A stretch of 64,000 bases of DNA from a bacterium (GCA_043825615.1 JBDRRS010000003.1:56090-120089), one strand, 5' to 3'. Positions 527 to 16,252 are shown, numbered from the stretch's first letter. Program-made: numbers and translations. The notes: generated by a model from the letters alone, not told the origin.

Positions 527-3301
527 TTGTCGGCACTGCAAAACCGAACTAATTTTTGCTCAGTTATGGCGGCTAAGATAAAAAAAGTTTTCTTTGCTAT
601 TTTGTTTTTTTCTTTCCTCCCATACGGCATTACTGCAAATGAAGGTTCTCTGACAAGAACTCTTAAAGGGCATACCGGATGGGTGTTGTCGGTTGCATTT
701 TCGCCGGACGGGAAATATCTTGCCTCAGGAAGTGGTGATGGAACAATAAAACTCTGGCGTGTTTCAGACGGCAAATTAATTAGAACTTTTAAAGGTCATG
801 CTAACAAGGTGGTTTCAGTTTCATTTTCTCCCGATGGGAAACTGATTGCCTCTGGAAGTTGGGATTGTACAATAAAAATCTGGCATGTTTCAAAGGGTTC
901 TCTAATCAGAACGCTTAAAGGGCATACCGGATATGTAAACTCAGTATCATTTTCACCTGATGGAAAATATCTTGCATCAGGAAGTGAAGATAAAACAATA
1001 AAAATCTGGCGGACTTCTGATGGCTCTCTCATAAGAACAGTTAAAGGACACATATCCCCTGTGAATTCAGTATCATTTTCACCTGATGGTAAATACTTTG
1101 CATCAGGAAGTGAAGATAAAACAATAAAAATCTGGTCGGCTTTCGACGGTTTTCTCATAGGAACGCTTATAGGACACACAGATTACGTGAGATCGCTATC
1201 ATTTTCACCTGACGGGAAATATATTGCATCAGGAAGTGATGTGTTAGATAATACAATAAAAATCTGGCGCGTCTCGGATGATTCTCTAATAAGAACGCTT
1301 AAAGGGCATACAGGGAAAGTTTATTCAGTATCATTTTCGCCTGATGGAAAATTTCTTGTCTCTGGAAGTCAGGATGAAACAATAAAAGTTTGGCGCATCT
1401 CTAATGGGACATTGATAGAAACGCTCAAAGGACATACATTTAAAGTGTGGTCAGTATCATTTTCACCAGATGGGAAATATCTTGCCTCGGGAAGTTGGAG
1501 AGCGATAAAAATCTGGCTTACACCATGGGAGAAAGAAAAAAGGGACACTGAAGAAGGAGTTGTTAGAGCAATTCAAGAAGCATCGAGACTGATGGAAGAA
1601 CAAGAAATTAAAGCTGCGCATAAAAGAAATGCGGAAAGAAAGGAGAAAGAAAAAAATGAATATCTTAATGCGTTTAACGGGTTATATCTGATTGGGAATC
1701 CAAGGATTGAAATTTTTGCCGGTTCAAAAGAAAATATAGAAATTAAGTTAAATAATGAATCATCGCAGAATTTCAGAGACATTACGGTAAAATGTTCCAT
1801 TTCGCAATCTTCACCTTATATTGAATATAAATCAAAAGAAAAATTAAATGAATTAAAATACGGAGAAGGGAAAAAATTGATTTTTCCGGTTTCTGTCCAG
1901 TGGCATGCAAAGGAAGATAATCTGCATTTTAATTTTGAAATGACGGAGAACCGGTATAATTTTTTCAGAAATTTTTCCATCCCTGTTGAAATAAAGAGAA
2001 GGGAGCCCATTTTCGAAATTCTGGATATAAAAATTGATGATTCTTCAACAGCGGAGACATGGGGTGACGGGGATGGTATCATAGAAAAAGGAGAACGGGT
2101 AAAAATGTCCGTTATGATTGTCAATAATGGAAAAGGCGCAGGAATGTCAAGTGCGTTTCATCTTTTAACAGCGCATCCTCATATAGAAATAACAAAAGGA
2201 AAAGAGGAAAAGGATGATATTCTGCCAGGAGAGAAAAAAGTTACTGAATTCGTACTTTCTCTTGACGCTGGCTATATTGGTCCGAAAGTTCTCCCCCTTT
2301 TATTAAAAATAACCGGCGATTTTGAAGAAAAAATTATTCCTCTAAAATTAAGTTATCGCAGGATATTTTCTGAAAATATAATTATTGTTGTTCTCGGTGC
2401 ATTACTTTTAATTTTTTCCATAGTATTTTTTATCAGGCAAAAAACTGATAAGAAAGAAATTAAACCTGTTCAGACAAAAGGTACAATCTCTGCAGGAATA
2501 CGCTCACAAGGGGATGTATTTGATAAATATGAAATTATTCGCGAGAGGGGTAGAGGCGGAATGGGAATTGTTTATGAGGCGATGAATAAAAAACTTGGCA
2601 AAAAAATCGCTCTGAAAAAAATGAAAGAGGAACTTGCAATAAATCCGAGGGAAAGAGAAAGGTTTTTAATGGAAGCGAGAAGAGTGGCAGTGTTACAACA
2701 TCCCCATATTGTTGATATTTACGACATTATTGAGGAGAAAAATAATATCTATCTTATTTTTGAATTTGTTGAAGGGAGAACAATAGAATGGCATTTAAAT
2801 GAGAAAGGGAAATTCATATTATCAAGGACGATAGAAATAACTAAACAAATATGTGAGGCACTGGATTATGCCCACGGGCATAAAATAATTCACAGAGATA
2901 TGACGACATCAAACATTATGATTTGTCACAATGGCAGAGTAAAGGTAATGGATTTCGGAATAGCAAGAGAGGCGAAGAATACTTTTTCACGGTTAACAGG
3001 AAAGGACACATCCGGCACTCTCGCTTATATGGCTCCCGAGCAGGAATTAGGAAGTTATGATGTGCAGTCGGACATATTTTCCGTCGGTGTTTGTTTTTAT
3101 GAGATGCTTGCAGGTGAACTGCCTTACAAAGGTCCGAACTTCTATTTGCAGAAAACAAAAATGTCATATAGAAAAATCAGAGAAATCAATCCTGAAATTC
3201 CGCAGGAAATTGAATCAATAATTGAAAAATGTCTCCAGCCGGAAAAAGAAAATAGATATAATACGGTTGAAGATTTGATTACAGAACTCAAAAAAATATG
3301 A
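527..3301 (+). CDS. Receptor-like protein: signal peptide, 7 WD40 blades, coiled coil, beta-rich middle domain, TM helix, C-terminal Ser/Thr kinase-like domain
   Basis: Seven GH..V.SVSFSPDGKYLASGS.D.TIKIW repeats (about nt 644-1532). TM helix IIIVVLGALLLIFSIVFFI. Kinase motifs GRGGMGIVY, ALKKMK, HRDMTTSN (nt 2891-2914), DFG, APE. The true start may be the internal MAAKIKK. Confidence 0.85.
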   Translation: MSALQNRTNFCSVMAAKIKKVFFAILFFSFLPYGITANEGSLTRTLKGHTGWVLSVAFSPDGKYLASGSGDGTIKLWRVSDGKLIRTFKGHANKVVSVSFSPDGKLIASGSWDCTIKIWHVSKGSLIRTLKGHTGYVNSVSFSPDGKYLASGSEDKTIKIWRTSDGSLIRTVKGHISPVNSVSFSPDGKYFASGSEDKTIKIWSAFDGFLIGTLIGHTDYVRSLSFSPDGKYIASGSDVLDNTIKIWRVSDDSLIRTLKGHTGKVYSVSFSPDGKFLVSGSQDETIKVWRISNGTLIETLKGHTFKVWSVSFSPDGKYLASGSWRAIKIWLTPWEKEKRDTEEGVVRAIQEASRLMEEQEIKAAHKRNAERKEKEKNEYLNAFNGLYLIGNPRIEIFAGSKENIEIKLNNESSQNFRDITVKCSISQSSPYIEYKSKEKLNELKYGEGKKLIFPVSVQWHAKEDNLHFNFEMTENRYNFFRNFSIPVEIKRREPIFEILDIKIDDSSTAETWGDGDGIIEKGERVKMSVMIVNNGKGAGMSSAFHLLTAHPHIEITKGKEEKDDILPGEKKVTEFVLSLDAGYIGPKVLPLLLKITGDFEEKIIPLKLSYRRIFSENIIIVVLGALLLIFSIVFFIRQKTDKKEIKPVQTKGTISAGIRSQGDVFDKYEIIRERGRGGMGIVYEAMNKKLGKKIALKKMKEELAINPRERERFLMEARRVAVLQHPHIVDIYDIIEEKNNIYLIFEFVEGRTIEWHLNEKGKFILSRTIEITKQICEALDYAHGHKIIHRDMTTSNIMICHNGRVKVMDFGIAREAKNTFSRLTGKDTSGTLAYMAPEQELGSYDVQSDIFSVGVCFYEMLAGELPYKGPNFYLQKTKMSYRKIREINPEIPQEIESIIEKCLQPEKENRYNTVEDLITELKKI

Positions 3302-4029
3302 AAGTAAAAATATGTCCGCAGTGTAAAACAGAAAATAGAGCCGAGGCAAGGTTTTGCAAAAACTGCGGCAACCGCTTTAAAATAATTGCGCTTATTCTTT
3401 TTATTACCGCAATTGCCGGTGCAGTGTATTATTTTTCAGATATTTCTGGACGATCGCGGCTCAATAATGAGCTCCGGTGGTATGGTGGTGATAAATATAT
3501 TCTTAAGGTAAAAGAAACAGTAAAAGGCTGGTTTGTGGAAGGAGACCTTGTTCCCCTATTAGAGATTACCAAAAAGGAAAGTCCGCCTCCAAAGCAGGCA
3601 GGAAAAATTAATTTTAACCAAAAACTTTATGAACAACATTTTGCGCAGGGTAAAAAAGAAGCGGAAAAAGGAAACTGGAATGAGGCAATGAAATCATACA
3701 GGAAATCTCTCCTATATAAGCCGCATGATAAGAAAGCAGAGAATGAACTGAAATTTGTCCGAGATGTTTGGCAGAGAAGAGAATTAAAGAAGGGGGAAGA
3801 AGAAGCGAAAAAAACTCTTGAGAGAGTAGAAGATAAAGAAAAATATGCAAGTCGCGTGGAAAGAATCGAAAATCTGAAAAGGCAATATTATAGCCGAGGA
3901 TTAAATCTATACCAGGCAAAAAAATATGAGGAAGCAATAAAAACGTTCAGGAAACTGCTTATGCTGGAACCTGCTCACCCGCAGGCGCTTTATATAATCA
4001 AAAAATGCGAAGATGCCCTTGGGATATAG
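3298..4029 (+). CDS. Zinc-ribbon / single TM / TPR-like repeat protein
   Basis: N-terminal CPQC...CKNC zinc ribbon, hydrophobic helix IIALILFITAIAGAVYYF, and TPR-like segments (GNWNEAMKSYRKSLLYKP, KKYEEAIKTFRKLLMLEP). Its ATGA start/stop overlaps the upstream kinase gene. Confidence 0.6.
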   Translation: MKVKICPQCKTENRAEARFCKNCGNRFKIIALILFITAIAGAVYYFSDISGRSRLNNELRWYGGDKYILKVKETVKGWFVEGDLVPLLEITKKESPPPKQAGKINFNQKLYEQHFAQGKKEAEKGNWNEAMKSYRKSLLYKPHDKKAENELKFVRDVWQRRELKKGEEEAKKTLERVEDKEKYASRVERIENLKRQYYSRGLNLYQAKKYEEAIKTFRKLLMLEPAHPQALYIIKKCEDALGI

Positions 4030-4082
4030 AAAAAATAGGGCCGGAGGAAATTAACATCCGATGGGTATTAATAAAATTTGAC

Positions 4083-4111
4083 TTGACTGATATTATAGAA
4101 ATCTATATAAT
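4083..4111 (+). promoter_or_regulatory. Sigma70-like promoter candidate (TTGACT, 17 nt, TATAAT)
   Basis: TTGACT at 4083-4088, a 17-nt spacer, then TATAAT at 4106-4111. It lies 37 nt upstream of the ATPase ORF start at 4148. Confidence 0.4.
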
Positions 4112-4147
4112 TAGTCGGGTTGATATTAAAGGAAAAAAGATTAATAG

Positions 4148-5539
4148 ATGAAAAGAATTTATTTTAGAACACTGGACCTGAATGGATTTTGGAACAGGGA
4201 AGAGCACATTGATTTTAATATGGAATCAATAATTCCGAGATTTAAGATAAAAAAAATATTAAGCAGATTAGAAGAAAAAAACATTGAAATAATCACAGGA
4301 CCGAGACAGACGGGAAAAACAACGTTGCTGTATCTCATCATAAAGGATATATTGAAAAACAGGAAAAACCATAAGAGATTATTCTACGTAAATCTTGATA
4401 CGATTGTAAATTACGAACTATTTGAAAACCCCTATTTATTTTATGAAAATATCAAAAGGTCATTTGCCGATGATAAAGGCGTAAATTATCTTTTTATAGA
4501 CGAAGTTCAGAGATTAAGAAATCCGGGACAGTTTTTGAAAGGGATATATGACTTAAAAAAGAACATAAAAATAATTGTTACGGGCTCTTCCTCTCTTGAA
4601 ATAAAATCCAAGACAAAAGAATTTTTAACCGGCAGAAAAAGGGAAACGACATTATTACCGGTTTCATTTTCGGAGTATATTGATTCGGGGAGGAAAATTC
4701 CGGAAGATTTGAAATCACTAAAAATAAATAACAAAACATTGTCATTATGGGCGGATAATGAGTTGCTTTACGGTAAATACCTTTCAGACAAATTGGAATA
4801 TATGCAGCTTTACGGAGGATATCCCGCGGCGCTGACTAAAAAAAATTATGAACAGAGGATTGAAGAACTATCGGAAATATTCAATTCATACATAAAAAAG
4901 GATGTTGTTGATTTTTTAAAAGTTGAACGCATTGATATTTATGACAAATTGATTAAAGTGGCAGCCACGCAAATAGGTAATATGATGAATTTTTCTGAAT
5001 TGTGCTCCCTTGTGCAGGGTAATTTAATAACCGTAACTAAATATTTAAGCATTCTTGAAAAAACTTTCATAACTTATTATTTAAAACCGTTCACCTCTAA
5101 AAAAAGGAATGAGGTCAAACATGCAACCAAATGTTATTTTATTGATACTGGCCTGCGAAATTTTGCCATAAGGCAGTTTAATAAAACCGATACGAGGATG
5201 GATTCAGGAGCATTGCTCGAGAATATTCTTTTAGCTGAAAATTTAAAGAAACAGAAATTAGACGAAGAGATATTTTACTGGAGAACAAAAGCAGGAGCGG
5301 AAATAGATTGTGTTATAAAAAAGCAGGGGAGAATTATTCCGATAGAAATAAAGTCGGGAAAAATAAAAATTGGAGCGCTTACCAAAAGTTTCCATTCTTT
5401 TATTAATTCATTTTCACCTGAAAAAGCCATATTTATCAATAAGGATAAGTTCGGAATAATGAAAATACACAGGACGAGAGTTTATTATATTCCTGCTAAA
5501 TGGTTTCTTTTATACGGTTTAAATTTAATAGGAGAATAA
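4148..5539 (+). CDS. COG1373-type ATPase (AAA_14 N-terminal domain plus DUF4143 C-terminal domain)
   Basis: Walker A GPRQTGKTTLL and Walker B-like LFIDEVQ. The C-terminal part reads WRTKAGAEIDCVIKK...IPIEIKSG, an E-x-D ... E-x-K nuclease-like pattern. Confidence 0.8.
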   Translation: MKRIYFRTLDLNGFWNREEHIDFNMESIIPRFKIKKILSRLEEKNIEIITGPRQTGKTTLLYLIIKDILKNRKNHKRLFYVNLDTIVNYELFENPYLFYENIKRSFADDKGVNYLFIDEVQRLRNPGQFLKGIYDLKKNIKIIVTGSSSLEIKSKTKEFLTGRKRETTLLPVSFSEYIDSGRKIPEDLKSLKINNKTLSLWADNELLYGKYLSDKLEYMQLYGGYPAALTKKNYEQRIEELSEIFNSYIKKDVVDFLKVERIDIYDKLIKVAATQIGNMMNFSELCSLVQGNLITVTKYLSILEKTFITYYLKPFTSKKRNEVKHATKCYFIDTGLRNFAIRQFNKTDTRMDSGALLENILLAENLKKQKLDEEIFYWRTKAGAEIDCVIKKQGRIIPIEIKSGKIKIGALTKSFHSFINSFSPEKAIFINKDKFGIMKIHRTRVYYIPAKWFLLYGLNLIGE

Positions 5540-5555
5540 AAACTCATAAGAATTT

Positions 5556-6830
5556 ATGAAAGTAAAAATCTGTCCGCAGTGCAAGACGGAAAATAGAGCC
5601 GAGGCGGTATTCTGCAAGAACTGCAGAAAAACATTAAAGTTATCTGTAGCGGTGCGATTTATCGCGCTTGGTTTTTTTATTAGCGCTATTGTCGGAGCGG
5701 GCTGGTATTTTTATTCAATAATAAATATCTCCGGTCGAGCAAATGCAAAAATAAAGGAAGCGGAAAAAATTAGGCAGACACTCCCAAAATTCCGTGAAGG
5801 AAAGCATCCTGCTGGTTATTTAAGGGAACAGTATGAAGCGTGGAAATCTCTTCGTTTAGCAAAAGAAACTTATGTTGCAGGGAATTATGCAGCGTCATTA
5901 AAATATGCAAAAAGTGCAATTCAAAAGGCAAAGAAATTAGATGAAACTGCACGCCTTGAATCGGATATAAAATATGGCCGCTGGTTTGTGGAAGGAGAGG
6001 AGAACCTAAAAAAAGCAGAAAAAACCGTAGCAGCAGAGCTTGCTCTGCCTTTATACCGGAGGACACTGGAATGTTTTGAAAAAGTGTTGAATTGCCGCCC
6101 GGATGATTCTGCTTCAAAAGAAAAAATTGAATTTTGTAAAAATAAAATTTATGAGCTACTTTTTATTCAAGGAAAAAATTATGCGGAAAAAGGAAACTGG
6201 GAGGATGCGATAACGTCATATCAGGAAGCATTGAAATACAAGCCGGGCGACAGCAAAGCGGAGAACGAGCTGAAATTTGTAACGTCAAAGAAAATTGATG
6301 ACTCTATTTCCAAAGGAAAAAGATACCTCAATCAAAAAAAATATTCGGACGCGGTGGATGAATTTCAGAAAGCAGTAAATCTCGGAGCATCAGGAGAAGT
6401 AATAGGATTATTGGCGGAAGCGAAGAAGAAGAAGAGGAAGTGGGTGGTACAGAAGGGCGAATGGAGTATAATTGACGATGACCTTGTAATTGTAGGTATC
6501 GGAGGAGGTGATTACCTGATGTGGCCAAGAAACAAATACAGGGCCGGATGCAACAATAATGGAGAATTAAACTGGTCGTCAGCTATGTCCTGGGCGCGGG
6601 ATTTGGTTTATAATGGCTATGACGACTGGCGTCTGCCGACAAAAGATGAACTAAAACAACTCTATGATTATGGGAAGACATATATTACTTACTCATCTTC
6701 TTGGTATTGGTCTTCGTCTGCTCACGCTAGGACCAATTTTACATGGTACGTGTATTTCGGCAATGGCTACGTGGGCTACGTCAATAAGACCGATAGCGGC
6801 TATGTTCGTCCGGTGCGTGGATGCCCGTGA
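5556..6830 (+). CDS. Zinc-ribbon / TM / TPR-like protein with C-terminal DUF1566 (Lcl C-terminal, C-type-lectin-like) domain
   Basis: The N-terminus MKVKICPQCKTENRAEAVFCKNC is nearly identical to that of ORF 3298. It has a TM helix and TPR-like segments. The C-terminus (DDWRLPTKDELKQLY ... GYVRPVRG) is typical of DUF1566. Confidence 0.7.
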   Translation: MKVKICPQCKTENRAEAVFCKNCRKTLKLSVAVRFIALGFFISAIVGAGWYFYSIINISGRANAKIKEAEKIRQTLPKFREGKHPAGYLREQYEAWKSLRLAKETYVAGNYAASLKYAKSAIQKAKKLDETARLESDIKYGRWFVEGEENLKKAEKTVAAELALPLYRRTLECFEKVLNCRPDDSASKEKIEFCKNKIYELLFIQGKNYAEKGNWEDAITSYQEALKYKPGDSKAENELKFVTSKKIDDSISKGKRYLNQKKYSDAVDEFQKAVNLGASGEVIGLLAEAKKKKRKWVVQKGEWSIIDDDLVIVGIGGGDYLMWPRNKYRAGCNNNGELNWSSAMSWARDLVYNGYDDWRLPTKDELKQLYDYGKTYITYSSSWYWSSSAHARTNFTWYVYFGNGYVGYVNKTDSGYVRPVRGCP

Positions 6831-6948
6831 GTATTGATTATTTGATTATTTCCTGCCGAAAGGCAGTGTGGATTTATGAATAAGATTTAGAAAATATGAG
6901 AAACGAAAAATCAGAATTAATAATATCTTTTGAAGAAGGGAGAAAATT

Positions 6949-7947
6949 ATGATATGTCCGGAATGTAAAAAAGAAGTTCCTGAAGGGGAATTCTGTGACC
7001 TTTGCGGAGCAAAATTAGAATCGGCAGGAAAAAGTACGCTCACTTCCGCCCCTGTGCAAAAGCCGTCATCTGAGAGTATATTAAAAGAAAAATATGAGAT
7101 TTTAAGAGAAATCGGGCGAGGGGGAATGGGGATTGTTTATGAGGCGGTGAACAAAAAACTTGGGAAAAAAGTTGCTCTGAAAAAGATGAAAGAGGAACTT
7201 GCAATAAATCCAAGAGAGAAGGAGAGATTTTTGAAAGAAGCAAGGAGAGTTGCCGAACTTCATCATCCGCGCATTGTTGACATTTACGATATTGTTGAAG
7301 AAGAAATCCCCTCACCTAACCTCTCCCCTGAGGGGAGAGGAAAAAGAGAGGGCGGGATTTATCTTGTGTTTGAGTTTGTGGACGGAAGAACAATTGAGCA
7401 GATGCTTAATTCAGGAATGAAATTCAAAGTTAATGAGGCGGTGAAAATAATCAAGCAGGTCTGCGAAGCGCTTGAATATGCTCACGGTAAAAAAATTATA
7501 CACAGAGATGTGAAACCCTCAAACATAATTGTTTGCCCCTCACCTGACCTCTCCCCGAAGGGGAGAGGAATGATGGTAAAAGTGATGGATTTCGGAATTG
7601 CAAGAGAAGCAAAGAATACGTATTCAAGATTAACCGGAAAGGATACATCGGGCACGTTGGCTTATATGGCTCCCGAGCAGGAACTGGGAAGTTATGATGT
7701 GCAGTCGGACATATTTTCGGTTGGAGTATGCTTGTATGAAATGCTCACAGGGGAACTGCCTTACAAGGGTCCAAACTTCTATTTGCAGAAAGAAAAGATG
7801 TCATATAGAAAAATCAGGGAAATCAATCCCGAAATCCCTCAGGGTATTGAATCAATAATTGAGAAATGCCTTCAGCCGGAAAAAGAAAATAGATATCAGT
7901 CGGTGGCGGAATTGATTGATCAAATAGCGGATTTGAAAGATGCTTAG
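6949..7947 (+). CDS. Zinc-ribbon Ser/Thr protein kinase (soluble)
   Basis: N-terminal CPEC...CDLC ribbon. Kinase motifs GRGGMGIVY, ALKKMK, HRDVKPSN (nt 7501-7524), DFG, APE. It is roughly 85% identical by eye to the kinase domain of ORF 527..3301. Confidence 0.85.
   Translation: MICPECKKEVPEGEFCDLCGAKLESAGKSTLTSAPVQKPSSESILKEKYEILREIGRGGMGIVYEAVNKKLGKKVALKKMKEELAINPREKERFLKEARRVAELHHPRIVDIYDIVEEEIPSPNLSPEGRGKREGGIYLVFEFVDGRTIEQMLNSGMKFKVNEAVKIIKQVCEALEYAHGKKIIHRDVKPSNIIVCPSPDLSPKGRGMMVKVMDFGIAREAKNTYSRLTGKDTSGTLAYMAPEQELGSYDVQSDIFSVGVCLYEMLTGELPYKGPNFYLQKEKMSYRKIREINPEIPQGIESIIEKCLQPEKENRYQSVAELIDQIADLKDA
7308..7340. repeat. 33-nt palindromic element, copy 1, in frame inside the kinase gene
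   Basis: Sequence cccctcacctaaCCTCTCCCCtgaGGGGAGAGG. It has a 9-bp perfect stem (7320-7328 / 7332-7340) and translates as PSPNLSPEGRG. It is absent from the paralogous kinase. Confidence 0.65.
7536..7568. repeat. 33-nt palindromic element, copy 2, in frame inside the kinase gene
   Basis: Sequence cccctcacctgaCCTCTCCCCgaaGGGGAGAGG. The stem is 7548-7556 / 7560-7568 and it translates as PSPDLSPKGRG. It is absent from the paralogous kinase. Confidence 0.65.
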
Positions 7948-10477
7948 AATGAAGAAAGACAGGCTGTTCGTAATTGACGGCAACAATTATCTGCACAGGG
8001 CGTATCACGCCCTCCCGCCGCTCACCACGAAGGACGGACGTCCCGTCGGTGCGCTGTACGGTTTTGTCAGAATGATTCTGTCTCTTGTAAAAAAGGAAAC
8101 GCCGGAGTATCTGCTCACGGTTTTCGACACACCCGCGCCGACTTTCAGGCACAGGGAATTTCCGCAGTACAAGGCGACGCGTCCCAAGCCGGAAGATGCG
8201 CTTGTCTTTCAATTGAAAAATATGAGAGAAATCGTTAACCTGCTCGGGGTAAAGACGTTTGAGGCGCCCGGCTTTGAAGCGGATGACATTATGGCGAGTG
8301 TTTGCGGAAAATTTTTGGGGAAGGTAAAGATATTCATTCTGTCCGCCGACAAGGATGTTTCGCAGATTGTCGGTAAAGAAGTCCTGATATACAATGAAAT
8401 GAAAAACCTCGTTATGGGTGAGGCGGAAATCATGCGGAAGTACGGCGTGAGCCCTTCAAAATTTTGCGACTGGCTCGCTCTCACGGGGGATTCCTCCGAC
8501 AACATTCCCGGCGCAAAAGGGATAGGCCCGAAGAGTGCGACGAAACTGCTCGGTTCTTTCTCGGGCGTGGAGGAAATTTACGAAAAGATTGACGAAATTC
8601 CCGCGAACCTCAGAGACAAACTCCTTGAAAGCAGGGAAAATGTTTTTCTTTCGAAAAAACTGGTCACTCTTCTGAAAGACGTTCCGCTGGACTTTGCTCT
8701 TGATGACCTGTCTTTCAGTTTGGATGCGGAGAAGGTGAAGAGCGTCGCCGAAAAGTGGGAGTTTTCTTCACTCCTCCGCAAAGATGACTCTTCCGGGACA
8801 AGCAAAGTTTTTGAGAAAATAAAATATACCGATGACCTTGCCGCGTTTTCCGCCTCCGAAAAAATGGCGGTAAGGTTTGTCAGTTCAAAAGACACAACCG
8901 GCTTTGCGGCGACCGACGGGAAGAACGCGGTTTTTATTCCGACCCTGCAGAGTGAGTTTGATTTCGGAGGAGGTAAAATAGAAGCATTTTTGAAAGTTTT
9001 ATCCCGCGGCGGCTTTTCCGTCGTAACAAATGACGCCAAGCATCTCTGCAAGTTCGCATTATCCAAAAAGCGGGAGCCCGCAGGTCCTTTTGAAGATATT
9101 TCGCTTATGGGGTATGTGCTTGATTCGGGTCCTTCGCAGGACATTTTTAACCTCTCAAGAAAATATCTCGGCGAGGAACTTCCCGCGGCGGTCGGCGAAA
9201 AGGAACAGGCGAAAATAACGGCGCAGTGTTTCAAACTGCGGGAAGTTCTGAAAGAGGAACTCTCAAAGAAGGGTCTGAAATTTTTATACGAGGAAATAGA
9301 ACTTCCTCTGGCGCGGGTCCTCGCGGAAATGGAACTGTGGGGCGTGAAACTTGACTGCGGGATTCTTGAAGAACTTTCCGCCGAAATGGCGGGAGAAATT
9401 ACAGCGGTACAGAAGACAATATTTTCTCTCGCAGGCGTTACATTTAACATAAATTCACAAATTGAAATGAGACGGGTACTCTTTGAAAAACTGAAACTTC
9501 CGGTGAAAAAACAGAAAAAAACCGGCGCGTCCGTCGACGCTTATGTCCTCAGGGAACTTTCGGCTTTTCACCCTATTTGCAGTGAAATAATAAAATACAG
9601 AACTCTCTCAAAATTGAAATCAACTTATGTGGATGCTCTGCCGCGCCTGGTGGCCGGCGACAACCGGCTCCACACCGATTTCAATTCGACGGGAACTCTT
9701 ACAGGGCGTCTTTCTTCCTCAAACCCGAACCTGCAAAACATTCCCGTCAGAGGCGAGTTCGCCTTCAAGATCCGTTCCGCATTCGTAGCGGAAGAAGGCT
9801 GCGTTCTGATTTCGGCTGATTACTCGCAGATTGATTTGAGAGCGCTTGCGCATTTTAGCGGCGACGAGCGGCTCCTGAAGGCATTCAGGGAGAACGATGA
9901 CATCCATAATTTTACCGCTTCGCTGGTCTTTGGCGTCGGAAGAAAAGATATTACGGGAGAGCAGCGCCGTATTGCGAAGACAGTGAATTTCGGCATTGTT
10001 TACGGAATGTCATCATACGGGCTTTCCGCCGACCTGGGTATTTCGAAAAATGAAGCCAAAAAAATTATAGACAATTACTGGATGATTTTTCCGGAAGTGA
10101 AGAACTATGTCGAAAAAAGCATTGAGGACGCGAAAAGGCATGGTTTTACGGAAACGCTTTTTAAGCGCCGACGGCCCATTTACGGGCGTTCGCCTTTTGA
10201 GCAGCGCGTTGCGGTGAACACGCCGATTCAGGGGACGTCCTCCGACATAATAAAAAAAGCAATGGTTGATATTTTTCCCATTCTTAAAGATTACGGGGCG
10301 AAAATGATTCTGCAGATTCACGATGAACTTCTTTTTGAAGTGGAGAATGACAAGTCATTGAAATTTGCTAAAATTGCGAAAACGACCATGGAAAAAGCCG
10401 TCGAATTAAAAGTCCCCGTAAAGGTAAATGTTAAATCGGGCAGGAATTTTGCCGGGATGGAAGCGCTGAATGTTTAA
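7940..10477 (+). CDS. polA: DNA polymerase I
   Basis: N-terminal 5'-nuclease domain (LFVIDGNNYLHRAYHAL). Pol motifs DYSQIDLRALAH, RRIAKTVNFGIVYG, QIHDELLFE. An alternative start lies at 7949. Confidence 0.95.
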   Translation: MLRMKKDRLFVIDGNNYLHRAYHALPPLTTKDGRPVGALYGFVRMILSLVKKETPEYLLTVFDTPAPTFRHREFPQYKATRPKPEDALVFQLKNMREIVNLLGVKTFEAPGFEADDIMASVCGKFLGKVKIFILSADKDVSQIVGKEVLIYNEMKNLVMGEAEIMRKYGVSPSKFCDWLALTGDSSDNIPGAKGIGPKSATKLLGSFSGVEEIYEKIDEIPANLRDKLLESRENVFLSKKLVTLLKDVPLDFALDDLSFSLDAEKVKSVAEKWEFSSLLRKDDSSGTSKVFEKIKYTDDLAAFSASEKMAVRFVSSKDTTGFAATDGKNAVFIPTLQSEFDFGGGKIEAFLKVLSRGGFSVVTNDAKHLCKFALSKKREPAGPFEDISLMGYVLDSGPSQDIFNLSRKYLGEELPAAVGEKEQAKITAQCFKLREVLKEELSKKGLKFLYEEIELPLARVLAEMELWGVKLDCGILEELSAEMAGEITAVQKTIFSLAGVTFNINSQIEMRRVLFEKLKLPVKKQKKTGASVDAYVLRELSAFHPICSEIIKYRTLSKLKSTYVDALPRLVAGDNRLHTDFNSTGTLTGRLSSSNPNLQNIPVRGEFAFKIRSAFVAEEGCVLISADYSQIDLRALAHFSGDERLLKAFRENDDIHNFTASLVFGVGRKDITGEQRRIAKTVNFGIVYGMSSYGLSADLGISKNEAKKIIDNYWMIFPEVKNYVEKSIEDAKRHGFTETLFKRRRPIYGRSPFEQRVAVNTPIQGTSSDIIKKAMVDIFPILKDYGAKMILQIHDELLFEVENDKSLKFAKIAKTTMEKAVELKVPVKVNVKSGRNFAGMEALNV

Positions 10478-11645
10478 AATACTGGGGCTTTTGTTCTTTT
10501 TGTCTTCAAGTTTATCTGCCGATACAAAAACCGTTGAGGTGAAGATTTTTGAAAATGAAGAACCGGCGGGTTCCGCCCCGCTGATATTAAAAGACGGGAT
10601 GGGGTATCTAAAAACATCGGACGTGGCGAATTTTTTCGGTCTCCGGGCGGAGTGGCTCCCCGATAAAAAATGCATCCGCCTGATTAACGAAGAAAAGGAG
10701 GACCTGCGGCTTTTCCTGAATTCAAAAAAAATATATATACGGAAACGTTTATGCACTTTGAAAAAAAGCCCCCTGATTTTTGAGGGAAAGTCATGGATTC
10801 CCTTTGAACTTATTCTTACGAAGTCGTTTCAGAGTTTTGCTTCTTCAAAGGTCTTCTGGGATTTTCAGGCCAAGAAACTTGCTATCTCCGGTTTTGGGGC
10901 TCGCCCGAAGAAAAGTTTGACAACTGTCCCGCCGCCGCAGATAAGGGCGCCGTTCCGGAAAACAAAAAGAAAGGTAAAAACGATTGTTATAGACCCCGGC
11001 CACGGCGGCAAGGACCCGGGCGCCGTCGCTCTTGACGGCACAAAAGAAAAAGACATTGTCCTTGATATTGCGCTTTGCCTGTATAAACTCTTCAGAAAAA
11101 ATCCGGCTTTCAACGCGATACTTACGAGAAAGACGGATATATTCCTGCCGCTTGCCACAAGAACTCTTATAGCAAACCGCGCCGAAGCCGACCTGTTTAT
11201 TTCAATCCACACAAACGCTTCATACAAAAAAAACACGAGGGGTTTTGAAGTTTATTTTTTAAGCGACACCGCATCCGACGACGAAGCGCAGACGGTTGCA
11301 AACACCGAAAACGCCGTTATTGAAATGGAGGAAAAACCGGCTTATAAGTCGGACATCAATTCAATACTCTGGTCGATGAAATTGAACGAGTATATGAACG
11401 AGTCGGCGGAGTGCTGCGCGTTTATATCCAGGGATGTGGGGAATTTTTTTTACACGAACAGAGGCATAAAACAGGCGGGTTTTTATGTGCTGAAAGGCGC
11501 CAGGATGCCGTCGCTTCTCATAGAGACGGGTTTTATCACCAACAGGAAGGACCTGAAAATCCTTAAAAAAGGCAGGAACAGACAGGTTATTGCGGAAAAA
11601 ATTTATAACTCGGTAACGGGTTATAAGATGTGGAGTGAAAAATAG
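10470..11645 (+). CDS. N-acetylmuramoyl-L-alanine amidase (Amidase_3 family)
   Basis: Signal peptide. Motifs IVIDPGHGGKDPGA, ADLFISIHTNA and GFYVLKGARMPSLLIETGFITN. Confidence 0.85.
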   Translation: MFKILGLLFFLSSSLSADTKTVEVKIFENEEPAGSAPLILKDGMGYLKTSDVANFFGLRAEWLPDKKCIRLINEEKEDLRLFLNSKKIYIRKRLCTLKKSPLIFEGKSWIPFELILTKSFQSFASSKVFWDFQAKKLAISGFGARPKKSLTTVPPPQIRAPFRKTKRKVKTIVIDPGHGGKDPGAVALDGTKEKDIVLDIALCLYKLFRKNPAFNAILTRKTDIFLPLATRTLIANRAEADLFISIHTNASYKKNTRGFEVYFLSDTASDDEAQTVANTENAVIEMEEKPAYKSDINSILWSMKLNEYMNESAECCAFISRDVGNFFYTNRGIKQAGFYVLKGARMPSLLIETGFITNRKDLKILKKGRNRQVIAEKIYNSVTGYKMWSEK

Positions 11646-11676
11646 AGAATTGCCGCGAGCGCGGTATTAGAAAAAA

Positions 11677-12408
11677 ATGAAAATAGGCGTTTTTGCGGAC
11701 ATTCACGCGAATCTGCCTGCTTTCGGGAAAGTTATTGAATTCCTTAAAAGTAAAGTCGGCGGTTTTGTCTGCTGCGGTGATATTGTCGGTTACGGGCCCC
11801 ATCCGAACGAGTGTATTGAAATGCTGCAGGGTCTTCAAAATACTTACATCGTTTGCGGGAACCATGACCTGGCGGTTATAGGCGCCGGGGATGCCGGAAC
11901 ATTCAGTGAAGACGCCGCCGCGGCGGTAGAGTGGACGATGGGAAAATTAACGGATTCATCCCGTTCCTTTCTGTCCGGCCTTGAGCGCAAAATCACCGTT
12001 GATAATTTTACCGCTGTTCACGGCTCTCTGATTGACCCTATCAAGCAGTATGTGACGGGCATTCCGGATTATATTCCTTCGCTCAGGGCGCAGGAAAAAG
12101 GGCTTGTTTTTAACGGCCACACCCACAGGCCGCTTTATTTCCGTGCTGCGGAGGAAACCGTAAGTTCGGGGTTCTTTAATCCCGGTTCTCCCGTTAAAAT
12201 TTCGGACGGGTCAAAATACTTTATCAACGCCGGCGCCGTCGGTCAGCCCAGAGACGGAGACCCGCGCGCCTCCTGCGTAATTTACGACGGGGATGCTGGA
12301 ACGGTTACGCTTTACCGCCTGGAGTATGATATAAAGAGTACGCAGAATGATATGAGGAAAACGGACAGCCCGCTGTTTTTGATTGAGCGGCTCGGAGCAG
12401 GAGTATGA
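11677..12408 (+). CDS. Metallophosphoesterase (YfcE/MJ0936-like)
   Basis: Motifs MKIGVFADIHAN, CCGDIVGYGP, GNHD and GHTH. Confidence 0.8.
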   Translation: MKIGVFADIHANLPAFGKVIEFLKSKVGGFVCCGDIVGYGPHPNECIEMLQGLQNTYIVCGNHDLAVIGAGDAGTFSEDAAAAVEWTMGKLTDSSRSFLSGLERKITVDNFTAVHGSLIDPIKQYVTGIPDYIPSLRAQEKGLVFNGHTHRPLYFRAAEETVSSGFFNPGSPVKISDGSKYFINAGAVGQPRDGDPRASCVIYDGDAGTVTLYRLEYDIKSTQNDMRKTDSPLFLIERLGAGV

Positions 12409-12992
12409 TTAAACCGGGAACGGTTGTTGGCGGGCAGCCGGAGTTCTGCGGCGCGGGCGCGACTCTTGCGGAGTTAATGGCGCGGGACAAATGGCTTGAA
12501 GTAAAAAGCGCCTGTAAAATAATAATGCAGGTTCTCGAAGTTCTTGCTCATATGCATTCGCGCGGGGTCATACTTCAAAACCTGAACCCGGAAAACATTA
12601 TTGTCTCAGGGAAGGGGGGCATAAAATTTGCTGATTTAGATTCGGCATATTATTTTGAAGCAGGAGCCGTCTCGCCGCCGGGCGCGCCCGGCGCGGTGGA
12701 ATATATGAGCCCGCAGAAGTTTTACGGCGACGTTTCAACCGAAAGCGATGTTTTTTCTGCGGGAGTCCTTTTTTACCGGCTCCTCACCGGCCATTTCCCG
12801 TACGCCCCGAGCGAAATTATTTCATACCCCGAAGCCGCCGCAAAGCCGCATCCTGTATCCCATTATAACAAAAGCGTTCCTCCGCCGCTGGAAAATGTGA
12901 TTATGAAGGCAGTCGCTCTTAAGAAGAAGGACAGATTCCCGACGGCGAAAAGTTTTATATCAGCGCTTTTAAAAACAGGAGCGGTCAAATGA
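12405..12992 (+). CDS. Protein-kinase C-lobe-only protein (predicted pseudokinase)
   Basis: It aligns to a Hanks kinase from the hinge onward. The catalytic loop is LQNLNPEN (nt 12573-12596) instead of HRDLKPEN. DLD replaces DFG and SPQ replaces APE. No P-loop or VAIK region is present. The start overlaps the upstream stop by 4 nt. Confidence 0.6.
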   Translation: MIKPGTVVGGQPEFCGAGATLAELMARDKWLEVKSACKIIMQVLEVLAHMHSRGVILQNLNPENIIVSGKGGIKFADLDSAYYFEAGAVSPPGAPGAVEYMSPQKFYGDVSTESDVFSAGVLFYRLLTGHFPYAPSEIISYPEAAAKPHPVSHYNKSVPPPLENVIMKAVALKKKDRFPTAKSFISALLKTGAVK

Positions 12993-14152
12993 ACTGCCGG
13001 CTGTTTGTCCCCTTTCTTTTTTGTGTGATTTTGTTTTTTTCTGCAACGTTGTCCGCAGACGATTTGATGAAAGCGTCGAAAGAATTTGTCCGCGGAAATT
13101 TTGCGGCGGCGGAAAAGAACATCAGCGAGTATCTGGAAAAAAATCCCGAAGATAAAAAAGCGCAAAATATTTATCAGAAAATCTGCATAGAACTTTCAAA
13201 GAAATCGCTTGACGGCGGTGACGAAGAGACAGCCCGCTCCTATGCCGAGAAAGCGTACAAGGTCAATCCGGATAATGCGAAAGCCCGCGACCTTTATCTT
13301 GCGACAAAAAAAGTCGAGAAAGTAAAGGTCACCCCGGAAAAGATTGAAGCCGAAAAAGTTAAAGTCAGAAAACAGAAACTTGAATCTCCGGATTTCGAGC
13401 GTCGCCAGGAAGTTAAAACGAAGATAGAATATGAAACCAAAACGGAATACGTCACGAAGGAGATGATACAGCAGGTTGCGGAAATTCCGGACTGGATATG
13501 GTTGAGCATTGCTTTCAACGCCGTTTTGCTCGTGGGGGTTTACCTGATTTACAAATATAAGAAAAAGGGCAATAAAACTGTCTACGAGCAGTATCTCAGG
13601 ACTAAAATGCAACTTACTAATTATTTGAAAAACGACCCTGAGGCGGTGAAAAAACAGTTGGGCGACGAGCGCGCCGCCGAAATGTTTAAGCTTCTTTCAA
13701 CCCAGAAAGTGCCCGATAGCGTCAACATAAAATTTGTTGATGCAAACAGGGCTTTTACGGATATAAATCCCATCCCGCGGCTTACAGCCGATATGGTGGA
13801 ACTCTCCGAATACTTCCTGACCGACCCGAAAGAGATTGTCAAATTTTTGACACCGTTCCTTCAACACAAGAACAACCGTGCACGCGCTAACGCGGCGAAG
13901 GCAATTTATAAATACAAGCCGGTACTGGCAATGAATACGATAAAAAAGATGGCTGAATCGGAGGACAGGTGGGAAAAAATTTCAGCCGTGTGGGCTTGTT
14001 CCCAGTTAAACGACGGCGCCGCGGCGGCAATTTTGGAGCGTCTCGTCGCGGATAATGACATGGAAGTTTCGCTCGCCGCCACACAGGCATGTAACGCTAA
14101 AAAAGTGGCAAATGTTTTCAAGAAAAAAAATGACGGAAAAAGAACGGCTTAA
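12989..14152 (+). CDS. Bitopic protein: signal peptide, TPR-like region, K/E-rich coil, TM helix, C-terminal HEAT-like repeats
   Basis: TPR-like segments GNFAAAEKNISEYLEKNPED and ARSYAEKAYKVNPDNAKA. TM helix WIWLSIAFNAVLLVGVYLIY. HEAT-like segments NNRARANAAKAIYKY, DRWEKISAVWACSQL and DNDMEVSLAATQA. Confidence 0.55.
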   Translation: MNCRLFVPFLFCVILFFSATLSADDLMKASKEFVRGNFAAAEKNISEYLEKNPEDKKAQNIYQKICIELSKKSLDGGDEETARSYAEKAYKVNPDNAKARDLYLATKKVEKVKVTPEKIEAEKVKVRKQKLESPDFERRQEVKTKIEYETKTEYVTKEMIQQVAEIPDWIWLSIAFNAVLLVGVYLIYKYKKKGNKTVYEQYLRTKMQLTNYLKNDPEAVKKQLGDERAAEMFKLLSTQKVPDSVNIKFVDANRAFTDINPIPRLTADMVELSEYFLTDPKEIVKFLTPFLQHKNNRARANAAKAIYKYKPVLAMNTIKKMAESEDRWEKISAVWACSQLNDGAAAAILERLVADNDMEVSLAATQACNAKKVANVFKKKNDGKRTA

Positions 14153-15212
14153 GTGGATTGAATTTTCTCTGGCAAAAGGCATCACGCAGCCGGACCTTTA
14201 CCTGCTTTACAAATTTAAAAGAGACCCTTTTGAAATTGAGGAAATGGATATTGAGGAACTGAAAAACGTGATGGGCAACAGAGCCGGTAATTTGAGAAAT
14301 CCGCGCACAAAAGTGAGCGAAGAAGTACGCCGGATGGAAAAGGCAGGGGCAAGAGCCGTTTTCCTCGTCGATGAGGAATATCCCGCCCTGCTTAAGGAAA
14401 TACCGAACCCGCCTCTTTTTTTGCGTGTGCGAGGAAAAATTCCCGCCAGCGCCGAAAGGATGATAGCGGTTGTCGGCACCCGCCGCGCGTCGTCCTACGG
14501 GAGAAGAATCTGCGAATATTTTTCGGAAGAGATTGCGGGAAGAAACTTTACCGTCGTCAGCGGCCTTGCGCTGGGAATTGACACCGTGGCGCACTCCGTG
14601 GCGGTGAAAGGCGCATCCGGCACGGTTGCGGTTCTGGGCTGCGGCGCGGATGTTATTTACCCGGGGGAAAACAAACTTCTTGCGGAAAAAATTATTTCAA
14701 ACGGGGCGGTTGTAAGCGAATATCCGATGGGCACCATCCCTTCTAAACAGAATTTCCCGGTGCGTAACCGCATAATCAGCGGAATGTCCTGCGGGGTTCT
14801 GGTGGTCGAGGCGCCGCAGAAGTCGGGTGCGCTCATAACATCTTCTTTCGCCGGCGAGCAGGGGAGAGACGTGTGGGTTGCCTGCGGAGATATTTTTGAT
14901 AAAAATTTCAAAGGTTCCCACGCTTTGATAAAAGACGGGGCGAAACTGTGCGAAAGCATTGAGGACATAATGTGCGAACTGAATCTTCCCGGGATTGAGC
15001 CGATGCCGAAGGCTCCGGCGACCGCGTCGTTGCCCGAAGACTCCGGCGAGAAGAAGATTTATTCATGCATCGGCTGGAAACCCGTTACGCTGGATGAGAT
15101 AAAAGAAAAATCGGGTTTTGAGATAGCGAAAATCTTTAAGACCTTGACAAATCTTCAGATAAATGGATTTATTGATAACTCGGCAGGCGGAAAATTTGTG
15201 CGAAAAAAATGA
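14130..15212 (+). CDS. dprA: DNA-processing protein DprA
   Basis: Core sequence AVVGTRRASSYGRRICEYFSEEIAGRNFTVVSGLALGIDTVAH...FPVRNRIISGMS. The ORF opens at 14055, but the ATG at 14130 is a more plausible start. Confidence 0.9.
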   Translation: MTEKERLKWIEFSLAKGITQPDLYLLYKFKRDPFEIEEMDIEELKNVMGNRAGNLRNPRTKVSEEVRRMEKAGARAVFLVDEEYPALLKEIPNPPLFLRVRGKIPASAERMIAVVGTRRASSYGRRICEYFSEEIAGRNFTVVSGLALGIDTVAHSVAVKGASGTVAVLGCGADVIYPGENKLLAEKIISNGAVVSEYPMGTIPSKQNFPVRNRIISGMSCGVLVVEAPQKSGALITSSFAGEQGRDVWVACGDIFDKNFKGSHALIKDGAKLCESIEDIMCELNLPGIEPMPKAPATASLPEDSGEKKIYSCIGWKPVTLDEIKEKSGFEIAKIFKTLTNLQINGFIDNSAGGKFVRKK

Positions 15213-16252
15213 TGACTGAAAAGAAAGAATATATTAAGTTTCTAAATGATTTAAAAAGCAAGATAAAGCGTGTTCAATATCAGGCATATAGGACTGTCAA
15301 TAAGGAACTTATTAATCTCTATTGGGATATTGGTAAATCTATTGTTGAAAAGCAAAAGAAATTAGGTTGGGGACAAAAAATAATTCAGCAACTTGCTGAA
15401 GATTTACAAAAAGAGTTTCCTAAAAATAGCGGTTTTTCTGAGAGAAACTTAAAATATATGAGAAAATTTTATCGTGAATATAATGACAAGCCAAAAGTGC
15501 AACAACTTGTTGCACAAATACCCTGGGGACAAAATATTGTCATTCTCACAAAAATGAAAAATGATTATCAGAGAGAATATTATTTGCAAATGACTATTAG
15601 AAACATCTGGAGCAGAAGTATTTTAGTTCATCAAATAGAATCAAAATCCTTTGAACGATTTTTAACAGATAAGAAAAATCATAATTTTGATAAGACACTA
15701 CCGGTTAAGATGTTGAAAAAAGCAAAGCCGGTCATAAAAGATTCATATTTACTTGATTTTCTTGAAATATCTGAGGATATTAAAGAAAAGAAATTAGAGA
15801 AGAAACTTTTAGAAAATATTAAAAGTTTCTTATTAGAACTTGGTACTGGATTTACTTTTATTGGAAACCAATATAAAGTTGCGCTTGGCGAAAATGAATA
15901 TTTCATTGATTTACTATTTTATCATCGTTACTTGAAATGCTTGATTGCTATTGATTTAAAAATAGGCAAATTTATTCCGGAATATGCGGGAAAGATGAAT
16001 TTTTATCTCAATCTTCTTGATGATAAAGTTAAATTGCAAGATGAGAATCCATCTATAGGACTTATCCTGTGCAAAGAGAAAGACAATATTGTAGTTGAAT
16101 ATGCCTTAAGAAATATCAAAAAGCCGGTAGGTGTAGCAAAGTATTATTTAACAAGAAAGTTACCTGCTAAATTATTAAAACAGTTACCGGCTCCATCTGT
16201 TATAGAAGATAAACTTAGAAAATTAGAGGGAAAAAAGAATGGGTTATTCTGA
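15209..16252 (+). CDS. YhcG/DUF1016 family PD-(D/E)xK nuclease-domain protein
   Basis: N-terminus (VQYQAYRTVNKELINLYWDIGKSI) is typical of DUF1016. The nuclease core reads IDLLFYHRYLKCLIAIDLKIGKF. The gene is AT-rich. Its ATGA start/stop overlaps dprA. Confidence 0.8.
   Translation: MMTEKKEYIKFLNDLKSKIKRVQYQAYRTVNKELINLYWDIGKSIVEKQKKLGWGQKIIQQLAEDLQKEFPKNSGFSERNLKYMRKFYREYNDKPKVQQLVAQIPWGQNIVILTKMKNDYQREYYLQMTIRNIWSRSILVHQIESKSFERFLTDKKNHNFDKTLPVKMLKKAKPVIKDSYLLDFLEISEDIKEKKLEKKLLENIKSFLLELGTGFTFIGNQYKVALGENEYFIDLLFYHRYLKCLIAIDLKIGKFIPEYAGKMNFYLNLLDDKVKLQDENPSIGLILCKEKDNIVVEYALRNIKKPVGVAKYYLTRKLPAKLLKQLPAPSVIEDKLRKLEGKKNGLF

Follow-up and report, generated by a model that had tools for sequence, protein, structure and literature searches.

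Within a 64,000-nt stretch of bacterial DNA (GCA_043825615.1, JBDRRS010000003.1:56090-120089; hereafter the window), three consecutive open reading frames (ORFs) encode a metallophosphoesterase (ORF1), a 195-aa protein resembling only the C-terminal lobe (C-lobe) of a Hanks-type kinase (ORF2), and a membrane protein with TPR-like repeats, a transmembrane (TM) helix and HEAT repeats (ORF3). A sequence-only reading of this locus had proposed a dedicated module in which a phosphoesterase and a transmembrane repeat protein are combined with a kinase-fold scaffold. Its relatives show the middle gene to be a conserved kinase that was truncated in one lineage, a less exotic finding than proposed, but the remnant is still selected and repeatedly tied to the membrane partner. 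We give a probability of about 55% to the view that the C-lobe works as a recently born, non-catalytic subunit or adaptor of the TPR/TM/HEAT protein. The window genome is from groundwater and belongs to Elusimicrobiota, as judged from the names attached to homologues of the HEAT protein.

The Pkinase profile matches ORF2 only with its positions 79–252 of 263 (E 1e-19, 71.4 bits against a cut-off of 31.7), which bears out the claim that the similarity to Hanks kinases starts at the hinge. The closest solved structures are StkP (E 3e-22) and PknB (E 2e-17), and NCBIfam and PDB alike place the protein nearest to PknB/StkP-type kinases, always from the hinge onward. The stop-to-stop frame is only six codons longer upstream, so that no N-terminal lobe (N-lobe) is hidden in frame. 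About 85 residues are missing in the alignment with full-length orthologues, and no Gly-rich loop, beta3 Lys or alphaC Glu was found in ORF2. The ancestral catalytic loop HQDLKPEN reads LQNLNPEN (residues 57–64), with Asn for both the catalytic Asp and the loop Lys, and DFG reads DLD (residues 77–79), in which the Asp is kept and Phe-Gly replaced. The Hanks-type C-lobe fold itself, from alphaD to alphaI, is supported by profile and structure similarity. An AlphaFold2 (AF2) model of the 195-aa protein, computed from a four-sequence alignment, has a mean predicted local distance difference test score (pLDDT) of 51; its secondary structure fits a C-lobe, and Foldseek returns PknB as top matches (template modelling score 0.58–0.60). 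At this low confidence the model gives only weak confirmation of the fold. Lacking the ATP-binding lobe, the catalytic Asp and DFG, the protein cannot, by its sequence, be a kinase; not being bilobal, it is better described as a fragment of a pseudokinase than as a standard pseudokinase. The free-standing, catalytically dead C-lobe of the sequence-only reading is therefore real, with one amendment to its list of motifs: SPQ (residues 102–104), counted as abnormal together with LQNLNPEN and DLD, is indeed present but is also normal in full-length relatives. SPQ, like the non-RD HQD, is by this comparison a family trait and not a sign of decay. Nor is the split, N-lobe-less form an assembly slip, since window positions 10400–15300 are identical to an independent Logan contig from groundwater run X1 (depth 86).

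Relatives were collected as the flanks of HEAT-protein homologues and classified by BLAST against reference proteins (L numbers below). The gene string polA, Amidase_3, 243-aa phosphoesterase, kinase, TPR/TM/HEAT protein, dprA, topA and xerC is conserved in Elusimicrobiota, and the location of the trio between an amidase gene and dprA, noted earlier for the window, is found in relatives as well. Ten distinct lineages besides the window's clade (L004, L008, L009, L011, L016, L018, L019, L021, L022 and L025) carry the trio with a full-length kinase and with gene overlaps of 1–4 nt within the module. In all ten the kinase (290–312 aa) has a GGM Gly loop, the beta3 Lys, the alphaC Glu, HQDLKPEN, DFG and SPQ, and ends in a hydrophobic tail that reads as a TM anchor; with HQD, these orthologues are non-RD kinases. 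In L009, a metagenome-assembled genome (MAG) labelled Caldiserica, the trio is followed by riboflavin genes and not by dprA, which indicates that the three genes travel as a unit. To judge from these genomes, a conserved and translationally coupled module is real and apparently undescribed; our literature search found no relevant paper on a module of a phosphoesterase and a Hanks-type kinase. Its normal middle component is, by all its motifs, an active-looking tail-anchored kinase. The kinase and the separate TPR/HEAT protein look like a receptor kinase split into two chains, and the adjacent phosphoesterase could, by inference, be the kinase's phosphatase. The co-occurrence that the sequence-only reading had proposed to look for is thus there, but so is the full-length kinase that it had itself named as the sign of a truncation. 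With such a kinase filling the slot in ten related lineages, the idea of a phosphoesterase and a kinase-fold scaffold designed as a module has to be given up.

The N-lobe-less form was found only in a narrow clade of five distinct lineages: the window, L012/L003, L029, L002 and L001. L012 is the GTDB representative JBDRMV010000033.1 and is essentially the same as L003 and L020. When 1.8 billion representative proteins were searched exhaustively with HMMER, only two close relatives that are short or fused came up, followed by a 311-aa orthologue; all other matches were ordinary kinases. The gene upstream of the C-lobe is the phosphoesterase in the window, L012 and L029, and a Y1_Tnp cassette replacing it in L002 and L001; C-lobe and HEAT protein are split in the window and L001 and fused in L012, L029 and L002. 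In the window protein, MIKPGTVV resembles the ancestral N-terminus (MIKLGTIV in L018, MIELGQVI in L030) and QPEFCGAG-TLAEL corresponds to beta5 plus hinge in L030 (QVMEFFNGLTLVEL); at the nucleotide level, blastn loses the similarity to L030 at 12406 and picks it up again at 12471. Since the ancestral first eight residues and a beta5 remnant are kept, sequence comparison establishes that the N-lobe was lost by an internal in-frame deletion which left the start codon in place and the gene still coupled to that of the phosphoesterase. The remnant is 13 codons shorter in L012 (a 39-nt indel relative to the window at 12421), and L029 has also trimmed it further. In L001 and L002 the phosphoesterase is gone together with the kinase N-lobe, and a Y1_Tnp/DnaA_C-like gene (316–318 aa) fills their place up to the hinge; in L001 the right inverted repeat of this cassette supplies the ATG of the C-lobe. 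The three kinds of rearrangement all end at the boundary of the C-lobe domain. All N-lobe-less copies also lack the kinase's own TM tail, and the clade has several replacements of DFG (DLD, DLG, DLS and DSG).

In L030, the sister of L001 (amidase 87% and C-lobe 88% identical), the phosphoesterase is still present and the kinase is full-length, with Lys, HQD and DFG retained. The change of the catalytic-loop Asp to Asn and that of the DFG Phe to Leu occur on both sides of the L030/L001 split. Between L001 and L002 the synonymous divergence (dS) is 0.31 for the cassette against 0.87–1.08 for its flanks, so the cassette is younger than the flanks. Because a full-length L030 is sister to a truncated L001 and because of the age of the cassette, the sequences point to more than one loss of the N-lobe or to the spread of a deleted allele by recombination. 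A single shared origin of all losses was also considered. L030 may be an intermediate state before N-lobe loss. At L030 3668–4264 the Gly loop is degenerate (QENELSRFY, compared with REGGMAKIY in relatives); this kinase also has an activation-loop insert of ~25 aa, and the contig ends inside the gene. The cassette is built like a tyrosine transposase associated with repetitive extragenic palindromes, and the window has no copy of it.

Selection on the remnant was estimated as the ratio of nonsynonymous to synonymous divergence (dN/dS) by the Nei-Gojobori method with bootstrap bounds, and by Fisher tests of pN < pS. In all ten pairs of the five N-lobe-less lineages the dN/dS of the C-lobe lies between 0.19 and 0.36, with upper 95% bounds of at most 0.53 and p ≤2e-5. 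The phosphoesterase-plus-remnant arrangement is common to the window, L012 and L029, whose divergence should therefore mostly post-date the deletion; their three pairs give 0.28–0.36. The ORF is without stop or frameshift in the five lineages, at dS up to ~0.9, and in the P+1/alphaF block (YMSPQKFYGDVSTESDVFSAGV..) 27 of 34 positions are invariant among four N-lobe-less sequences. Constraint is clearly present and, to judge from the substitutions, acts on the amino-acid sequence, so that a need for translational read-through alone would not explain it. For the same region in full-length relatives dN/dS is 0.08–0.16 at comparable dS, and for neighbouring genes in the same genome pairs it is 0.09–0.21. 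A simple pseudogene, which the sequence-only reading had also foreseen, does not fit: the ORF has stayed open and constrained across all five lineages, and three of them have it fused to the HEAT gene.

The third protein is membrane-spanning, as had been claimed, with TPR-like repeats predicted outside the cell and HEAT repeats in the cytoplasm. By its profile scores it is a HEAT/TPR repeat protein, although marginally so for TPR (HEAT_2 40.9 bits against a cut-off of 27.7; TPR_14 24.1 against 23.5). The HEAT repeats are of PBS type (residues 282–376, 13832–14116) and match PBS-type alphaRep proteins with E 4e-25. Hydrophobic segments are found at residues 1–25 (12989–13063, signal-peptide-like) and as a TM helix at residues 166–190 (13484–13558), the latter followed by KYKKKGNK. 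The conserved N-terminal hydrophobic segment supports the long start of ORF3; gene call P0003 (361 aa) begins later. In the AF2 model of a fused orthologue, P0004, the TPR and HEAT parts form helical repeats with pLDDT 83–94, and a Foldseek search with this model returned kinases only. The most conserved stretch family-wide, RAFTDINPxPRLTAD (13740–13790, residues ~251–267), lies before the HEAT repeats and contains a nearly invariant Thr. The motif is a candidate for the place where the partner kinase docks on, or phosphorylates, the membrane protein.

In the fused lineages C-lobe and HEAT protein are one chain. The junction ...CAAATGAAC... is common to the split alleles of the window and L001, while L012/L003 and L002 have ACG for ATG and an insert of ~22 nt. 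Relative to the window, L012 carries a 22-nt insert and a 3-nt deletion, which together bring the C-lobe and HEAT ORFs into one frame. The linker of the fusions is basic (KRGRRLWK.. or KRGRFSRR..) and stands before the segment that is the signal peptide in the window, so that the predicted topology is a cytoplasmic C-lobe, a TM segment, an outside TPR domain, a TM segment and cytoplasmic HEAT repeats. When the products of adjacent genes occur naturally fused, this is a classical sign of joint function. L001 and L002, which have lost the phosphoesterase, still have both C-lobe and HEAT protein. Split and fused alleles seem to be shuffled among co-occurring strains: contigs of run X2 are identical to the window up to 12327 and carry a fused, L012-like allele from 12510 on, and a 2.2-kb segment of the window (9185–11384), from the last part of polA through most of the amidase gene, is 100% identical to L012, against ~94% in the sequence flanking it. 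Such identity mosaics suggest that strains living together have recently recombined, or else that the assemblies are chimeric.

The chaining of the three ORFs by ATGA overlaps had been described correctly to the nucleotide, and GGAG/AGGAG sequences resembling Shine-Dalgarno sites precede each internal start (C-lobe and HEAT ORFs) by 7–8 nt. As at least nine overlaps of 4 nt occur among the window ORFs of at least 150 aa, these overlaps indicate operon membership and nothing rarer. The likely start of dprA at 14130 gives a 23-nt overlap with the HEAT gene, and L001 is arranged alike. The amidase and phosphoesterase genes overlap by 4 nt in relatives (L004 and others); in the window a 31-nt spacer, created by a 35-nt insert relative to L012, lies between them. 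Run X3, a groundwater metatranscriptome, has contigs that match the window with 100% identity at 11618–12060, 14080–14242 and 14340–14467. The first begins within the last part of the amidase gene, 59 nt before the phosphoesterase ORF, and this suggests read-through transcription from the amidase gene.

ORF1 belongs to the calcineurin-like metallophosphoesterase superfamily by its Pfam score (Metallophos_2, 71 bits against a cut-off of 27) and by five metal-binding motifs, D8-x-H10, GD35, GNH63D, H115 and GH148-x-H150, all invariant in the orthologue alignment. The enzyme thus looks intact, as had been stated. Its description as YfcE-like holds for the motifs DIHAN, GD, GNHD and GHTH but not for the family, as it scores 44.2 bits against the curated YfcE cut-off of 56.25 (TIGR00040). 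The closest solved relative is 3RQZ, an uncharacterised protein of Sphaerobacter thermophilus that is matched over the full length (E 5e-47; profile 3e-68) and has the same metal-binding motifs; similarity to YfcE, MJ0936, SapH-like 3QFM and ApaH is weaker. By its sequence ORF1 does not qualify as a Ser/Thr protein phosphatase of the PPP family, because it has DIHAN, GDIVGYG and GNHD in place of the signature GDxHG, GDxVDRG and GNHE, and lambda phosphatase 1G5B reaches only E 0.17 with the phosphoesterase family profile. Fusion evidence for a link with kinases was also sought, and none of the 120 best homologues contains a kinase domain. The family has more than 6000 matches. A 42%-identical homologue in an Elusimicrobiales MAG (L033 5001–6126, GCA_028713125.1) lies between smc and the gene of a single-domain response regulator, with polA nearby, and for this reason the family is, as far as gene context tells, not generally kinase-linked. 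The phosphoesterase is absent from L001 and L002 and, on this distribution, is dispensable, which argues against an obligate trio. Its dN/dS is 0.23–0.28 in the window's clade as compared with 0.08 in L004/L011, i.e. it is constrained and relaxed.

The comparison shows the following history. The ancestral string consisted of the amidase, the 243-aa phosphoesterase, a tail-anchored non-RD Hanks kinase, the TPR/TM/HEAT protein and dprA. In the window's clade an internal in-frame deletion then removed the kinase N-lobe (beta1 to beta4/5, with alphaC), the catalytic Asp became Asn and DFG DL[DGS] or DSG, and the TM tail of the kinase was lost, so that the remaining protein can neither bind ATP nor transfer phosphate. 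As to function, it may be proposed that the C-lobe was kept for the non-catalytic half of its old job: it would dock on the cytoplasmic face of the TPR/TM/HEAT protein, its P+1/alphaF surface might also bind the old substrate or the phosphoesterase, and it would act as an adaptor or decoy subunit of the membrane protein. In the window it would be a separate polypeptide coupled to the HEAT gene through the ATGA overlap, whereas in sister strains the 22-nt indel would make one chain of the two. The phosphoesterase would be an optional leftover partner of the formerly active kinase.

Several observations weigh against an adaptor. The C-lobe has dN/dS values two to three times those of full-length relatives and of the genes around it, a relaxed constraint. 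The N-terminal remnant is shrinking step by step, strains differ in whether C-lobe and HEAT protein are split or fused, and two lineages (L001 and L002) have lost the phosphoesterase; slow decay would look alike. The AF2 models come from shallow alignments (pLDDT 51 for the C-lobe), and in the fused P0004, taken as a stand-in for the complex, the C-lobe is poor and the predicted template modelling score is 0.36, so that neither an interface nor contacts between domains can be read. Metatranscriptome contigs from three runs cover only the 5' end of the phosphoesterase gene and dprA, although contigs cannot show absence. The relaxed constraint, the shrinking remnant, the phosphoesterase losses, the lost catalytic residues with variable DFG replacements and the RNA contigs, none of which lies on the C-lobe, favour the main rival: a decaying remnant without a function of its own, whose frame is open only for translational coupling to the HEAT gene or because too little time has passed. 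We regard such decay as rather unlikely, although it deserves to be taken seriously. Coupling preserves an open frame and not a sequence, yet pN is far below pS in every pair; the P+1/alphaF block is largely invariant; neither stops nor frameshifts have appeared at the divergence reached; and in the fused alleles the C-lobe belongs to the HEAT protein itself.

The other explanations carry far less weight. That the dead C-lobe is the original and obligate part of a dedicated module with phosphoesterase and TM repeat protein would agree with the coupling of the genes and with the co-occurrence of the families across Elusimicrobiota and one Caldiserica-labelled MAG. It becomes very improbable because every lineage outside one narrow clade has a full-length kinase with intact catalytic residues, two of the five N-lobe-less lineages have no phosphoesterase, and distant phosphoesterase homologues adjoin SMC and response regulator genes instead of a kinase. 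The presence of two other, complete Hanks kinases in the window (527–3301 and 6949–7947) could suggest a split kinase, in which an N-lobe from some other gene, or a second kinase, would complement the C-lobe in trans. This is hardly credible for a protein with Asn for the catalytic Asp, Asn for the loop Lys and DLD, whose active site would be dead even with an N-lobe; moreover, tblastn of the 64 kb with orthologous N-lobes found only those of the two complete kinases and no free N-lobe ORF. We attach just as little belief to a degraded anti-phage defence system with a PD-T4-6-like kinase. PD-T4-6 is the best PADLOC match of the C-lobe (E 2e-32), NCBIfam MADS6 matches as well (E 5e-24), and two defence candidates lie nearby (PDC-S01 and PDC-S02). 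However, the PD-T4-6 match spans only model positions 92–271 of 292, a generic C-lobe for which PknB and StkP score equally well; PADLOC matches neither of the two partner proteins, phosphoesterase and HEAT protein; and the locus has phylum-wide housekeeping synteny (polA, amidase, module, dprA, topA, xerC) and is not a variable island.

The features of the locus and the neighbouring genes are collected in Table 1. A block rich in kinase and TPR genes extends over 527–7947 upstream of polA, and the part from ~5600 to 7946 has no blastn match in L001 or L002. The YhcG/DUF1016 nuclease gene lies between dprA and topA in the window and in L001, is truncated in L002, and is absent from that place in L012 and in the clade with full-length kinases. 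This gene and the AAA_14/DUF4143 ATPase gene look like variable single-gene defence candidates inserted in the housekeeping string.

Table 1. Features of the locus and its surroundings; positions refer to the window unless a relative is named.
Feature	Position	Strand	Evidence or remark
WD40-repeat and Pkinase protein, 924 aa	527-3301		
Zn-ribbon and TPR protein	3298-4029		
AAA_14/DUF4143 ATPase	4148-5539		PADLOC candidate PDC-S01, E 1e-87
Zn-ribbon, TPR and Lcl_C protein	5556-6830		
Zn-ribbon and fully canonical Hanks kinase (GRGGMG, VALKK, HRD, DFG, APE)	6949-7947		
Amidase_3 cell-wall amidase, conserved upstream neighbour	10470-11645	+	Pfam Amidase_3 E 1e-48; synteny
ORF1, metallophosphoesterase, 243 aa	11677-12408	+	Metallophos_2; 3RQZ-like
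ATGA stop/start overlap, phosphoesterase/C-lobe ORFs	12405-12408	+	
ORF2, kinase C-lobe, 195 aa	12405-12992	+	Pkinase profile
N-lobe remnant, MIKPGTVV (ancestral N-terminus) and GGQPEFCGAG (beta5)	12405-12470	+	Alignment; blastn
Kinase C-lobe proper, hinge/alphaD to alphaI, without TM tail	12471-12992	+	Pkinase profile; PDB StkP/PknB; dN/dS
Degenerate catalytic loop LQNLNPEN	12573-12596	+	Orthologue alignment
DLD for DFG	12633-12641	+	Orthologue alignment
P+1 loop to alphaF block (YMSPQKFYGDVSTESDVFSAGVLFYRLLTGHFPY)	12702-12803	+	Best-conserved part of the remnant
ATGA stop/start overlap, C-lobe/HEAT ORFs	12989-12992	+	
ORF3, TPR/TM/HEAT membrane protein, 387 aa	12989-14152	+	HEAT_2; TPR_14
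dprA, conserved downstream neighbour	14130-15212	+	Pfam DNA_processg_A E 2e-73
YhcG/DUF1016 PDDEXK nuclease	15209-16252		PADLOC candidate PDC-S02, E 1e-141
Y1_Tnp cassette of L001	L001 8987-10017		Perfect 24-nt inverted repeats
Y1_Tnp cassette of L002	L002 4969-5996		33-nt inverted repeats, 91% complementary

What usually identifies a pseudokinase is a complete bilobal domain in which motifs are mutated, and their origins and useful parts are mostly inferred from old, fixed families. Here, at one syntenic position, close uncultured relatives present an active-looking kinase, a degenerate Gly loop, an N-lobe deletion, a cassette replacement and fusions. If the remnant is only decaying, this is an ordinary story of gene loss that matters for annotation alone: such ORFs should not be called protein kinases. 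Among the known bacterial pseudokinases are EssB/YukC of the type VIIb secretion system and seven catalogued families, ActPs1-3, GLW, CP1, DYD and DLHK (PMC12599244). Compared by description only, these are also non-catalytic kinase folds, and some are bitopic membrane scaffolds (PMC12599244). A term search of the full text of this 2025 review found no mention of C-lobe-only or truncated forms, HEAT, TPR or Elusimicrobia.

PknB/PstP and StkP/PhpP follow the same logic as the ancestral module, with a membrane-anchored kinase, an outside sensor and an adjacent phosphoesterase, here by a cell-wall amidase, and PknB and StkP are the best sequence and structure matches of the window C-lobe. In contrast to these systems, the module has its TPR sensor and its kinase on different chains, HEAT repeats form the cytoplasmic part of the sensor protein, and the partner is a Metallophos_2 protein and not a PP2C phosphatase. 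In the window, the kinase has moreover been reduced to a dead C-lobe.

Nearest in its way of working is the KIND domain of animals, in which the C-lobe of a kinase serves non-catalytically as a protein-interaction module (PMC5928657, PMC2064798). Like the window protein, KIND is a kinase C-lobe without N-lobe or catalytic residues. The resemblance is one of architecture only, as Pfam KIND gave no match to the window protein at E ≤1. PTPN13 combines a KIND domain with a phosphatase. Unlike KIND, the window protein is bacterial, comes from a PknB-like kinase in one narrow clade and is either free-standing or fused to a membrane protein, and its role in interactions is a proposal. A bacterial counterpart of KIND, i.e. 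a stand-alone C-lobe born in one Elusimicrobiota clade from an active split receptor kinase and selected as an adaptor, is a tentative idea, less likely than not and less probable than the broader adaptor role. The conserved substrate-binding surface (P+1/alphaF/alphaG) would then tether the former substrate, or the phosphoesterase, to the TPR sensor's cytoplasmic HEAT domain, and the relatives could be arranged in a series from a full-length, active-looking kinase through a dead Gly loop (L030) and a deleted N-lobe with Asp changed to Asn to fusion with the partner. If the remnant is functional, the TPR/TM/HEAT protein would be identified as the membrane partner of the kinase in an undescribed Elusimicrobiota signalling module, and the C-lobe alone could be a selectable unit in bacteria, as KIND is in animals.

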